Shown piece after piece: positions 1,534 to 6,346 of a DNA stretch of 6,346 nucleotides. Under the pieces are notes generated by a model. That model ran no database searches. It was not told the origin of the DNA and saw only the letters and a list, made by a program, of their open reading frames with translations. Both the position numbers and the translations under genes were made by a program. The DNA comes from a virus (taxonomy: Duplodnaviria; Heunggongvirae; Uroviricota; Caudoviricetes). The DNA lies in the IMG/VR virus record IMGVR_UViG_2675903253_000005; one strand, written 5' to 3'. How positions within the stretch are numbered: position 1 is the stretch's first letter; every line of letters begins with the position of its first letter.

Positions 1534-1539
1534 GGGGTG
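1534..1539 (+). promoter_or_regulatory. Putative Shine-Dalgarno element for stf copy C
   Basis: ggggtga upstream of ATG 1543; same sequence as 461..466. Confidence 0.4.
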
Positions 1540-1542
1540 AAT

Positions 1543-4500
1543 ATGGCAGTAAAGATTTCAGGTGTACTGAAAGACGGCACAGGAAAACCGGTACAGAACT
1601 GCACAATCCAGCTGAAAGCAAAACGTAACAGCACCACGGTGGTGGTGAACACGCTGGCCTCAGAAAATCCGGATGAAGCCGGGCGTTACAGCATGGACGT
1701 TGAGTACGGTCAGTACAGCGTTATTCTGTTGGTGGAAGGATTCCCGCCGTCACATGCCGGGACCATCACTGTGTATGAAGATTCCCGACCCGGTACGCTG
1801 AATGATTTTCTCGGTGCCATGACGGAGGATGATGCCCGTCCGGAGGCTCTGCGCCGTTTTGAACTGATGGTGGAAGAGGTGGCGCGTAACGCGTCCGCGG
1901 TGGCACAGAACACGGCAGCCGCGAAGAAGTCAGCCAGTGATGCCGGCACATCTGCCCGTGAGGCGGCAACCCATGCGACTGATGCTGCAGGCTCAGCGCG
2001 TGCAGCCAGCACGTCAGCCGGACAGGCCGCGACTTCGGCTCAGGAGGCGTCTTCCAGCGCAGGAACGGCATCAACAAAGGCCACTGAAGCATCAAAAAGT
2101 GCTGCCGCTGCAGAGTCCTCAAAAAGCGCGGCGGCCACCAGTGCCGGTGCGGCGAAAACGTCAGAAACGAATGCTGCAGCGTCACAAAAATCAGCAGCCA
2201 CTTCTGCATCCACTGCGACAACGAAAGCGTCAGAAGCCGCCACTTCAGCCAGAGATGCGGCGGCCTCCAAAGAGGCGGCAAAATCATCAGAAACGAACGC
2301 CTCCACAAGCGCCAGCAGTGCAGCCTCCTCGGCAACGGCGGCAGGAAATTCCGTGAAGGCGGCAAAAACGTCCGAGACGAATGCTAAGTCTTCTGAAACG
2401 GCAGCGGAACAGAGCGCCTCAGCTGCGGCAGACTCTGAGACAGCAGCTGCATCATCGGCCCGTGAGGCGTCCATTAAGGCAGAGGAGGCAGCAGTCAGTG
2501 CCACCGCCGCCGGAAAATCGGCAGAAAGCGCCGCATCATCCGCTTCAACAGCCACAACGAAGGCTGGCGAAGCCACTGAGCAGGCCACGGCAGCAGCGAG
2601 GTCAGCTTCCGCAGCGAAGACATCCGAAACGAACGCGAAAGCGTCGGAAACCCGTGCAGAATCCTCAAAAACGGCTGGCGCATCGTCCGCCAGTTCGGCG
2701 GCGTCATCGGCATCATCGGCGTCTGCTTCAAAAGATGAGGCGACCAGACAGGCGTCAGCAGCGAAGGGCAGCGCCACGACGGCATCCACGAAGGCGACAG
2801 AGGCTGCTGGTAGTGCGACGGCAGCAGCTCAGAGCAAAAGTACGGCGGAATCTGCAGCAACGCGCGCTGAGACAGCGGCAAAACGGGCAGAGGATATTGC
2901 ATCCGCCGTGGCGCTTGAGGATGCGAGCACGACGAAAAAGGGGATAGTACAGCTCAGTAGTGCGACTAACAGCACTTCCGAGTCACTGGCGGCAACGCCA
3001 AAAGCCGTTAAGGCCGCGTATGACCTGGCTAACGGGAAATACACCGCACAGGATGCAACGACAGCACAGAAAGGGATAATCCAGCTAAGCAGCGCGACCA
3101 ACAGCACGTCTGAAACGCTGGCGGCAACGCCAAAGGCAGTAAAAGCAGCCAATGACAATGCTGAGAAACGTCTGCAGAAAGATCAGAACGGTGCGGATAT
3201 CCCTGGCAAAGACACCTTTACGAAAAATATTGGTGCCTGCCGTGCCTTCGGTGGGTCAGTAAGCACAACAACAGGAAACTGGACGACTGCACAGTTTATC
3301 GAGTGGCTGGATTCTCAGGGAGCATTTAACCATCCATACTGGATGTGCAAGGGTTCCTGGTCTTATGGCAATAATAAAATCATTACTGATACTGGCTGCG
3401 GTAATATTCATCTCGCCGGAGCTGTCATTGAAGTAATGGGGATAAAGTCAGCGATGACGATCCGCATTACCACTCCGACCACATCCAGCGGTGGCGGAAC
3501 AACCAACGCCCAGTTTACCTATATTAATCACGGAACAGATTATTCACCTGGCTGGCGAAGGGACTATAACTCCAGAAATAAGCCAACGGCATCAGAGATC
3601 GGGGCGCTACCGTCAGGTGGAACAGCAGTATCATCAGTTAATCTGGCTTCAAAAGGTCGGGTAGCCGCGCTGACAGACAATACGCAGGGGGCAGCAGGTC
3701 TTGAGTTATACGAGGTGTATAACAACGGATATCCAACAGCGTATGGAAATATCATTCACCTGAAAGGGATGACAGCCGTTGGCGAAGGTGAGTTACTCAT
3801 CGGCTGGAGTGGTACAAGCGGTGCTCATGCTCCGGCATTTATTCGTTCACGACGGGATACGACCGACGCAAACTGGTCGCCGTGGGCGCAGCTTTACACC
3901 TCGGCTCATCCTCCTGCAGAGTTTTATCCAGTCGGTGCACCAATCCCGTGGCCATCAGATACCGTTCCGTCTGGTTATGCCCTGATGCAGGGGCAGACTT
4001 TTGACAAATCTGCTTACCCGAAACTTGCAGCCGCTTATCCGTCAGGCGTGATCCCTGATATGCGTGGCTGGACGATTAAGGGCAAGCCCGCCAGTGGTCG
4101 TGCCGTATTGTCTCAGGAACAGGATGGCATTAAATCGCACACCCACAGCGCCAGCGCATCCAGTACGGATTTGGGGACGAAAACCACATCGTCGTTTGAT
4201 TACGGCACTAAATCCACGAATAACACCGGGGCGCATACGCACAGTCTGAGCGGCTCTACAAGTTCAGCTGGGGCCCACCAACATAGTCAGACTGGGCCCA
4301 GAACGAATAGCGGGAGTCAACCTACTGGAATGTTTCCGGCAGGGAGTACTCAAGTTAGCGGGACTAATCAGGTTGGTATCAGTGGCTCATTAACCAGTGG
4401 CACCTCCCAATGGGTAGGTAAATCATCTTCAGAAGGAAACCATACACACTCACTGTCCGGCACAGCAGCATCTGCGGGTGCACACGCGCATACTGTCGGT

Positions 4501-4626
4501 ATTGGTGCTCATACGCACTCTGTTGCGATTGGTTCACATGGACACACCATCACCGTTAACGCTGCTGGTAACGCGGAAAACACCGTCAAAAACATCGCAT
4601 TTAACTATATTGTGAGGCTCGCATAA
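1543..4626 (+). CDS. stf: Side tail fibre protein Stf, full length (1027 codons): N-terminal tail-attachment region, Ala/Ser/Thr-rich shaft, two phage fibre repeats, receptor-binding domain, His-box (HxH) tip
   Basis: Uninterrupted ORF from ATG 1543 to TAA 4624-4626. N-terminus [20 protein letters not shown]... and C-terminus ...[29 protein letters not shown] match my recollection of lambda Stf. [23 protein letters not shown] fibre repeats are present. Seven HxH motifs lie in the C-terminal 140 residues. Confidence 0.9.
1900..2930 (+). repeat. Low-complexity Ala/Ser/Thr-rich shaft region with degenerate repeats (recurrent K(T/S)SETNA and SAAA/TSA motifs)
   Basis: The protein is dominated by A/S/T/K/E here. 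SETNA recurs at about 2161, 2287, 2371 and 2626. The GCN-rich codons create long spurious antisense ORFs. Confidence 0.7.
2938..3150 (+). repeat. Two tandem phage tail-fibre repeats within stf copy C (one 44-aa unit plus one core unit)
   Basis: [44 protein letters not shown] (2938..3069) followed by [29 protein letters not shown] (3070..3150). This is the conserved fibre-repeat motif shared by lambda Stf, P2 H and Mu S-type fibres. Confidence 0.8.
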
Positions 4627-4649: not shown

Positions 4650-4650
4650 N
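4650..4650. other. Single ambiguous base (N) at the breakpoint between the tfa 5' end and mid-stf shaft sequence
   Basis: ...agtgaacaa-n-gggcagcgccacgacgg: tfa-like sequence ends at 4649, and from 4652 the sequence parallels copy C from 2767. Confidence 0.9.
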
Positions 4651-4651
4651 G

Positions 4652-6346
4652 GGCAGCGCCACGACGGCATCCACGAAGGCGACAGAGGCTGCTGGCAGTG
4701 CGGCAGCGGCAGCACAGAGCAAAAGTACGGCGGAATCCGCGGCAACGCGCGCCGAGACAGCAGCAAAACGGGCAGAGGATATTGCATCCGCCGTGGCGCT
4801 TGAGGATGCGAGCACGACGAAAAAGGGGATAGTACAGCTCAGTAGTGCGACTAACAGCACTTCCGAGTCACTGGCGGCAACGCCAAAAGCCGTTAAGGCC
4901 GCGTATGACCTGGCTAACGGGAAATACACCGCACAGGATGCAACGACAGCACAGAAAGGGATAGTTCAGCTCAGCAGTGCGACTAACAGCACTTCCGAGT
5001 CACAGGCGGCAACGCCAAAAGCCGTTAAGGCCGCGTATGACCTGGCTAACGGGAAATACACCGCACAGGACGCTACGACAGCACAAAAAGGAATTGTCCA
5101 GCTCAGTAGTGCAACCAACAGCACATCTGAAACGCTTGCTGCGACACCGAAAGCAGTGAAAGCAGCTAATGACAATGCGAATGGTCGGGTACCTTCTGCC
5201 CGTAAGGTGAATGGTAAGGCGCTTTCAGCGGATATAACACTGACGCCGAAAGATATTGGTACGCTTAACTCAACAACAATGTCATTCAGCGGTGGTGCTG
5301 GTTGGTTCAAATTAGCAACGGTAACCATGCCACAGGCGAGTTCTGTTGTTTCAATTACGTTGATTGGTGGCGCTGGATTTAACGTGGGGTCACCTCAACA
5401 GGCAGGTATATCTGAACTTGTTTTACGTGCAGGTAATGGTAATCCGAAGGGGATTACTGGTGCTTTATGGCAGCGCACATTGACAGGGTTTACAAATTTT
5501 GCCTGGGTTAATACATCTGGTGATACTTACGATATTTACGTTGCAATCGGAAATTATGCGACTGGTGTAAATATTCAATGGGATTATACCAGTAATGCCA
5601 GCGTGACGATTCATACGTCACCAGCATATTCTGCTAATAAGCCGGAAGGGTTAACGGACGGTACAGTTTATTCACTCTATACGCCATCAGAGCAGTTTTA
5701 TCCGCCTGGCGCACCAATCCCGTGGCCATCAGATACCGTTCCGTCTGGCTATGCCCTGATGCAGGGGCAGGCTTTTGACAAATCTGCATACCCGAAACTT
5801 GCAGCGGCTTATCCGTCAGGCGTGATCCCTGATATGCGTGGCTGGACGATTAAGGGCAAGCCCGCCAGTGGTCGTGCCGTATTGTCTCAGGAACAGGATG
5901 GCATTAAATCGCACACCCACAGCGCCAGCGCATCCAGTACGGATTTGGGGACGAAAACCACATCGTCGTTTGATTACGGCACTAAATCCACGAATAACAC
6001 TGGTGCGCATACCCATAGTTTAAGTGGCAGCACGAATGCAGCTGGTAATCACAGCCATAGAGATGGCCGTCGATTTAACCCCAGTGTTTTTAAAGATACT
6101 TATCAATATGGTTATACAAGCTCAGGTCAAAATACCTGGGGTGTACAAGGCTCAGTAGGTATGTCTACGGGGTGGTTAGCGAATACCAGTATAGATGGTA
6201 ATCATAGCCATTCACTGTCCGGCACAGCAGCATCTGCAGGTGCACACGCGCATACTGTCGGTATTGGTGCTCATACGCACTCCGTTGCGATTGGTTCACA
6301 TGGACACACCATCACCGTTAACGCTGCTGGTAACGCGGAAAACACC
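4652..6346 (+). CDS. Stf-like side tail fibre, 3' portion of a distinct allele (copy D): shaft end, three fibre repeats, alternative receptor-binding domain, His-box tip with alternative insert; partial at both ends
   Basis: Frame-2 open reading from 4652 to the window end with no stop. The first ~170 nt parallel copy C 2767..2937. Repeats [15 protein letters not shown]... occur three times. Region 5708..6031 is near-identical to copy C 3934..4257, and 6212..6346 to 4450..4584. Confidence 0.85.
4823..5167 (+). repeat. Three tandem phage tail-fibre repeats in copy D (two 44-aa units plus one core unit)
   Basis: Units begin at K codons 4823, 4955 and 5087. Sequences are [88 protein letters not shown] and [29 protein letters not shown]. 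Confidence 0.8.

Follow-up and report, generated by a model that had tools for sequence, protein, structure and literature searches.

The analyzed stretch of DNA, referred to here as the window, is 6,346 nt long and consists of four pieces, with runs of N between them at 409, 1462-1482, and 4650. Each of the four is part of a side tail fiber gene (stf) of the lambda type. The blocks common to these copies (A to D) are large and share 91 to 100% identity, and positions 409-708 match 1482-1781 without a difference (100%). Rather than true tandem genes, the copies are probably stf repeats that stem from different prophages or strains and were scaffolded or collapsed. Because N joins the pieces that hold them, copies C and D are not necessarily neighbors in a real genome, and the two look like stf alleles from different prophages or strains. 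The genes considered here are the following.

1537-4626, plus strand: copy C, a complete stf gene (1029 aa), followed by the first tfa codons.
4261-4449, plus strand: alternative tip cassette of copy C, used as the comparator, at the same position within the complete stf 1537-4626.
4651-6346, plus strand: copy D, a partial lambdoid side tail fiber gene (stf), with frame 2 open throughout from 4652.

Copy D is truncated at both ends, on the left by the N at 4650 and on the right at 6346, where the window ends, and its N-terminus lies outside the window. Pfam domains in copy C are phage_tail_N (PF08400), Phage_fiber_2, and Collar; in copy D, they are three Phage_fiber_2 domains, Collar, and Phage_fiber, of which Collar and Phage_fiber exceed their cut-offs. 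The Phage_fiber_2 repeat is 132 nt (44 aa) long and occurs three times in D (4803-5178) and twice in C (2918-3161), a copy-number difference in the shaft. The mid-domains of D (5177-5692) and C (3157-3921) are unrelated. The mid-domain of D is A+T-rich (GC 0.452, GC3 0.343) and resembles that of a FelixO1-like fiber fragment (P0023), which has a 70% relative of the D tip. Because both mid-domain and tip are alike in this fragment, a module larger than the tip may be common to D and the FelixO1-like fiber by history.

In E. coli chromosomes, the usual order around a D-type stf is J, lom, stf, and tfa. At two loci with the D allele (L002 and L088), the full gene comes after J and lom, is annotated with a prophage tail fiber N-terminal domain, and has tfa directly downstream. 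In the window, the start of tfa follows copy C at 4626, and the downstream region of copy D itself lies beyond position 6346.

Homology and mosaic structure of the distal end of copy D

The last 218 residues of copy D (5693-6346) matched PDB entry 2XGF, the receptor-binding tip of T4 gp37, with an E value of 2e-74 (residues 3-218), and the near-identity between the two was broken at the insert 6032-6211 alone. In gp37, residues 882-931 and 960-1009 form the stem and residues 932-959 the tip; seven histidine-bound iron atoms lie along the needle, and binding to LPS or OmpC is lost when the tip is mutated (PMC6957217). The collar and descending stem of D (5693-6003) aligned to 2XGF chain residues 29-130, and the insert aligned with the gp37 tip subdomain (residues 932-959) together with the two most distal HxH motifs. 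Within the insert, the core at 6059-6199 aligned to gp37 residues 933-959, between GEHSH and GNHSH. This core has 47 aa between HSH and GNHSH; the T4 tip core has about 27 to 33 aa. Copy D contains seven HxH motifs (at 5912, 6008, 6050, 6203, 6245, 6272, and 6299), and exactly seven are also present in C and in the four other distinct lambdoid tip alleles examined. The first-pass annotation had paired the two HSH motifs of the insert with the HQH and HTH of copy C, and the alignment places them (6050-6058 and 6203-6211) in this register.

These alignments indicate that the core 6059-6199 is the presumed receptor-binding surface, comparable to the distal tip of gp37, and receptor binding by the D tip would follow by analogy. 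Iron binding and a trimeric structure of the D protein are likewise suggested by homology with gp37. For the Stf of Ur-lambda, structural homology to gp37 and docking into the OmpC trimer have been reported (PMC12617516). The AlphaFold2 monomer model computed from the single sequence of D 5693-6346 reached a pLDDT of 40, too low for use.

To compare the blocks in DNA, copies D and C were aligned three ways with the gp37-type gene of Escherichia phage P896 (OL451225), and informative sites were counted. P896 is a virulent 170-kb myovirus of the Tevenvirinae (Straboviridae, Gaprivervirus) with 40% GC, and the match lies in its distal fiber gene (gp37-type), upstream of a gp38-like gene. The end of copy D was divided into the following parts.

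5693-6003, plus strand: collar and descending stem with HxH motif 1 (5912-5920); 96.5% identical to C and 69% to P896; informative sites C to P896, 84:1.
6004-6055, plus strand: left junction, from the HTH to the HSH codons, mixed; 12 sites P896-like, 10 C-like, and 7 other.
6040-6058, plus strand: codons of His box 3 (AGNHSH), left copy of a 19-nt direct repeat; HSH at 6050-6058.
6059-6199, plus strand: cassette core of 47 aa (RDGRRFN...NTSIDG), the truly divergent part and equivalent of the gp37 distal tip.
6193-6211, plus strand: codons of His box 4 (DGNHSH), right copy of the 19-nt repeat; HSH at 6203-6211.
6212-6346, plus strand: ascending stem with HxH motifs 5 to 7 (6245-6253, 6272-6280, and 6299-6307); 98.5% identical to C and 70% to P896; informative sites C to P896, 39:1.

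Between the two stem blocks, the relationship was inverted: over 6056-6211, DNA identity was 96.2% between D and P896 and 46% between D and C, with informative sites of 80:2 in favor of P896. The right breakpoint falls between 6208, the last P896-like site, and 6214, the first C-like site, inside the GNHSH|S codons. The left side is less simple. HxH motif 2 (6008-6016) lies just beyond the block 5693-6003, and throughout 6004-6055 copy D is a clean match to neither C nor P896; the protein of this junction, TNAAGNHSH, matches that of a FelixO1-like fiber (P0022). Because the left junction is a mixed zone of 50 nt rather than a clean crossover, it points to more than one event or to a third parent. 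The core is bracketed by the 19-nt direct repeat (6040-6058 and 6193-6211), whose copies are 89% identical and encode (A/D)GNHSH. Judged from the alignment, this pattern is what the replacement of a cassette leaves behind when recombination takes place within or close to conserved His-box sequences, with the His boxes as the probable sites of the exchange.

The Tfa proteins downstream of four tip types were 95 to 99% identical to one another, and P896 gp38 was 27% identical to them. Since Tfa is constant across tip types, the tip is exchanged independently of its chaperone, which belongs with the backbone and not with the tip.

Taken as a whole, the best explanation is that 6032-6211 is the distal receptor-binding tip of a gp37-type needle at the C terminus of a lambdoid Stf and that it was exchanged as a cassette; we put the probability of this reading at about 0.85. 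By homology with gp37, three chains would descend a thin stem held by iron ions on the HxH motifs, fold into a small globular tip, and return along the stem. The tip would sit between HxH motifs 3 and 4 and carry receptor specificity. Because stem and collar DNA is conserved and His-box codons lie on both sides of the tip, homologous recombination could swap the tip alone. Such a swap would change the host surface molecule that is bound and leave the rest of the fiber and Tfa untouched, and copy D would carry one such replacement.

Composition and codon usage of the insert

The insert is read in frame 2, which is the frame that is open in copy D. Its earlier translation is exact from 6035, and a start at 6032 adds one leading codon, Thr. 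The first-pass annotation had judged by eye that the insert is more A+T-rich than its flanks, and the computed values agree with this: GC was 0.428 in the insert and 0.546 in the flanks (5693-6031 plus 6212-6346; P = 0.0085, Fisher's test). Codon usage also differed, with a GC3 of 0.283 in the insert against 0.51 in the flanks (P = 0.0036, Fisher's test), so that the two are not indistinguishable. In a windowed GC scan, 2.8% of all 180-nt windows in the 6,346 nt were equally A+T-rich, and the insert was not the spot of lowest GC, as positions 5480-5599 in the D mid-domain were lower (GC 0.367). The richness in Tyr, Trp, and Gly described earlier is also borne out, as the 47-aa core contains 8 Gly, 3 Tyr, 2 Trp, and 2 Phe; the aromatic share is 15% in the D core versus 4% in the C core.

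Synonymous codon choice was scored as a likelihood ratio between a T-even model, built from late genes of P896, and a lambdoid model, built from J, lom, stf without the tip, and tfa of one E. coli prophage. The insert scored +0.34 bits per codon toward the T-even model, and the core 6059-6199 scored +0.45; the flanks of the insert scored -0.16 and -0.02 bits per codon. Blocks of 60 codons had a mean of +0.37 ± 0.15 bits per codon in P896 and -0.42 ± 0.30 in lambdoid late genes; 1.2% of the lambdoid blocks reached the value of the insert. The GC3 of the insert (0.28 to 0.31) was equal to the gene background of P896 (0.27 to 0.31); lambdoid late genes had 0.58.

These features were not restricted to copy D. 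The cassette of copy C had a GC3 of 0.38 and a codon score of +0.32 bits per codon toward the T-even model. Six different tips were found on near-identical lambdoid flanks (D, C, mEp332, Turner, PhiR29_1/2H10, and 613R2), and their GC3 ranged from 0.30 to 0.39, with D the lowest. Upstream of the six tips, GC3 was 0.53 to 0.57, except for 0.45 in the more divergent 613R2 backbone. Thus, A+T-richness is a property of these tips generally, of which D is the extreme, and is not specific to D. Tips on the lambdoid backbone are compositionally foreign as a class, which fits a pool shared with A+T-rich virulent phages. Because the tip of C and the other tips are also A+T-shifted, the bias could instead be intrinsic to tips and not a mark of origin.

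Distribution of the cassette and direction of transfer

Copy D is 99.2 to 99.4% identical over its full length to prophage tail fiber genes in E. coli chromosomes. The cassette itself was present at ≥95% identity in 1,144 of 5,426 complete E. coli genomes (21%), and 1,108 complete genomes held the D fragment at ≥80% coverage. Among 50,697 phage records, it was found in seven lambdoid phages (Kati, PhiR34_1, PhiR42_1, PhiR68_2, mEp460_ev081, PhiR26_1, and PhiR30_1; 97 to 99.5% nt identity) and in exactly one T-even phage, P896. Only 1 of about 212 T-even phages with flanks homologous to those of P896 carries the D tip. The cassette is thus not confined to the lambdoid lineage, given its 96% DNA identity to a T-even phage whose flanks are about 70% identical.

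Searching 1.84 billion representative proteins exhaustively with HMMER gave few diverged relatives of the D tip. One of them, P0022, is a 1015-aa FelixO1-type fiber whose tip shares 70% protein identity and 73% DNA identity with the D cassette; its gene lies on a myovirus contig of 77 kb that also has genes for baseplate, thymidylate synthase, and DHFR. A second relative has lambdoid flanks and a tip of 61% identity. Three further matches (P0015, P0017, and P0018) have terminase- or portal-like N-termini fused to the Stf C-terminus. Most likely, repeated prophage DNA was assembled into chimeras in these cases, and the length and architecture of such matches are therefore not trustworthy. In IMG/VR, a scan with the D cassette returned 98 to 100% identical copies alone and no divergent relatives, and a scan with the FelixO1-like cassette returned His-box matches alone and no further copies. 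The low-GC flanks at the IMG/VR loci with the D cassette are probably prophage-adjacent DNA. The tip of copy C had no close match among the 50,697 phage records; its nearest phage relatives were gp37 tips of T-even-type phages of about 170 kb (one named Mosigvirus), with 55 to 59% aa identity.

The first-pass annotation had proposed that the insert came from a different genomic background, and this interpretation is supported, since GC and codon usage differ from the flanks and homology reaches T-even and FelixO1-like phages. Lambdoid prophages and a T-even phage share this tip module, of which a FelixO1-like phage has a diverged form. The direction of movement is less clear. An identity of 96% leaves no time for amelioration, so the agreement of the cassette GC3 with the P896 background (0.27 to 0.29), far from the 0.58 of lambdoid late genes, favors a history in an A+T-rich phage. 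Related tips also occur in two different groups of A+T-rich virulent myoviruses, and the A+T-rich codon usage is compatible with a history of the tip there. We lean modestly, at slightly better than even odds, toward transfer from a T-even-like phage into lambdoid prophages.

The opposite course is possible, and we regard it as the less probable one: the tip would be native to lambdoid prophages, P896 would have acquired it through recombination with a resident prophage during infection of a lysogen, and the A+T-rich codon usage would be intrinsic to Stf tips. The abundance of the tip in prophages and its rarity in T-even phages fit this direction equally well, with 1,144 of 5,426 E. coli genomes and seven lambdoid phages on one side and a single T-even record on the other, and with more than 200 T-even phages that have the P896 flanks and lack its tip. 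The phage collection behind the phage counts is a biased sample. The A+T shift of the other tips on lambdoid backbones, that of C included, points the same way, and PMC3157838 reports the T4 g37 C-terminus itself as coming from a lambda-like phage.

More tentatively, lambdoid side fiber tips in general may be drawn systematically from a pool held mainly in A+T-rich virulent myoviruses (T-even and FelixO1-like), a proposal that we consider doubtful in this broad form. If it were true, E. coli prophages and lytic phages would continuously trade receptor specificities by His-box recombination, and the D-type tip, present in a fifth of complete E. coli genomes, would mark a widely used specificity that moved between lifestyles very recently (96% nt identity).

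Receptor-binding tips are under strong diversifying selection, and the insert has the same position and HxH frame as that in C, so point mutations in a C-like ancestor might have produced the D tip in place, without any transfer. This is highly improbable. Within the block, DNA identity between copies D and C is 46%, close to the random level, and outside it 96 to 98%; the right edge is sharp within 6 nt; and the block is 96% identical to a P896 gene whose flanks are 70% identical. Divergence in situ would not give the block pattern of the mosaic, and this candidate was rejected on the sharp block structure together with the identity to P896.

Programmed variation, by a diversity-generating retroelement or by a Pin/Gin/Cin-type invertible segment, is scarcely credible here. 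Tail fiber tips are classic targets of both systems, and in related lambdoid phages with the same stf backbone a gene for a Pin-type serine invertase lies directly after tfa, on the opposite strand, as listed.

L088 5368-5958, opposite to tfa: Pin-type serine invertase.
L089 2218-2402, opposite to tfa: Pin-type serine invertase.
L090 2209-2394, opposite to tfa: Pin-type serine invertase.

A retroelement target was rejected, as the 6,346-nt window has no second copy of the cassette that could be the template repeat; in addition, the differences between D and C are spread over the bases and are not limited to particular ones. An invertible segment was also rejected. No inverted repeats flank the D cassette, and it is internal to the open reading frame with conserved coding sequence on both sides, whereas such systems exchange the whole C-terminus together with tfa. 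Finally, the chance that the mosaic is an assembly or scaffolding artifact of the N-stitched window, whose four pieces repeat one another around the N runs at 409, 1462-1482, and 4650, is negligible and was dismissed, because 4651-6346 is free of N, the whole of D recurs at 99.2 to 99.4% in many complete chromosomes (1,108 genomes cover at least 80%), and seven sequenced phages have the same arrangement.

Significance and comparison with known systems

The exchange of the D tip by recombination fits a long-established principle. The homology of lambda Stf/Tfa with T4 gp37/gp38 is given as long known in PMC3157838, citing George 1983 and Hendrix & Duda 1992, and the same source describes the T4 g37 C-terminus and g38 as exchanged with lambda. 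[quoted passage not shown] Our literature search found no paper on the D-type tip or its receptor, and the allele is not mentioned in PMC12315714 (lambdoid phage genomics) or PMC11338833 (Stf engineering). Two points are mildly new: the very recent sharing of a tip (96% nt identity) between lambdoid prophages and one Gaprivervirus, which we did not find reported, and the class-wide T-even-like codon usage of Stf tips. In T-even fiber genes, recombination at conserved motifs (His boxes) reportedly swaps adhesin specificity (Tetart et al. 1998, J Mol Biol 282:543).

The tip determines which bacteria a phage fiber grips. A 47-aa module that occurs on lambdoid and T4-type fibers, and in diverged form on a FelixO1-type fiber, with the chaperone unchanged, is a ready part for engineering the host range of phages and of delivery particles derived from them. 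In addition, a prophage allele nearly identical to the tip of a virulent T-even phage is a concrete case, and one that can be dated, of genes moving between temperate and lytic phages.

Compared with the T4 gp37 needle, copy D is alike in its collar, stem, and seven HxH motifs, which align, and in the position of its variable block at the gp37 tip; both tips are rich in aromatic and glycine residues. As to differences, no sequence similarity can be detected between the D core and the T4 tip, and the backbone is a lambdoid Stf (phage_tail_N and Phage_fiber_2 repeats) and not a T-even distal half-fiber. With the Ur-lambda Stf and StfR-type fibers with Tfa, copy D shares the gene family, the position in the order J, lom, stf, and tfa at the related loci, and the N-terminal and repeat domains. 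The stf gene of lambda matches the collar part of D alone (88%), and its tip and distal stem differ. The gp37-type fiber of P896 (OL451225) has the same tip cassette (96% in DNA and 92% in protein) but differs in its flanks (about 70%), in its chaperone (27%), and in belonging to a virulent 170-kb myovirus. The P896 gene (L001 2259-5447) further differs in having eight HxH motifs, with an extra VGIGAHTHT unit, and a duplicated SSFDYGTKT unit; repeat-number changes thus occur in the stem itself.

A further parallel is the receptor-binding protein family of PMC9659904. Like its members, the D cassette has conserved flanks, has been exchanged across lineages, and is bounded by conserved motifs as crossover points, with no essential difference. 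The swapping of tail fiber tips between phages is already well known, and the D cassette belongs to this family as a textbook case. Because the principle was established in the 1980s and 1990s and has been restated recently, the D cassette serves as an illustration of it rather than as a discovery.
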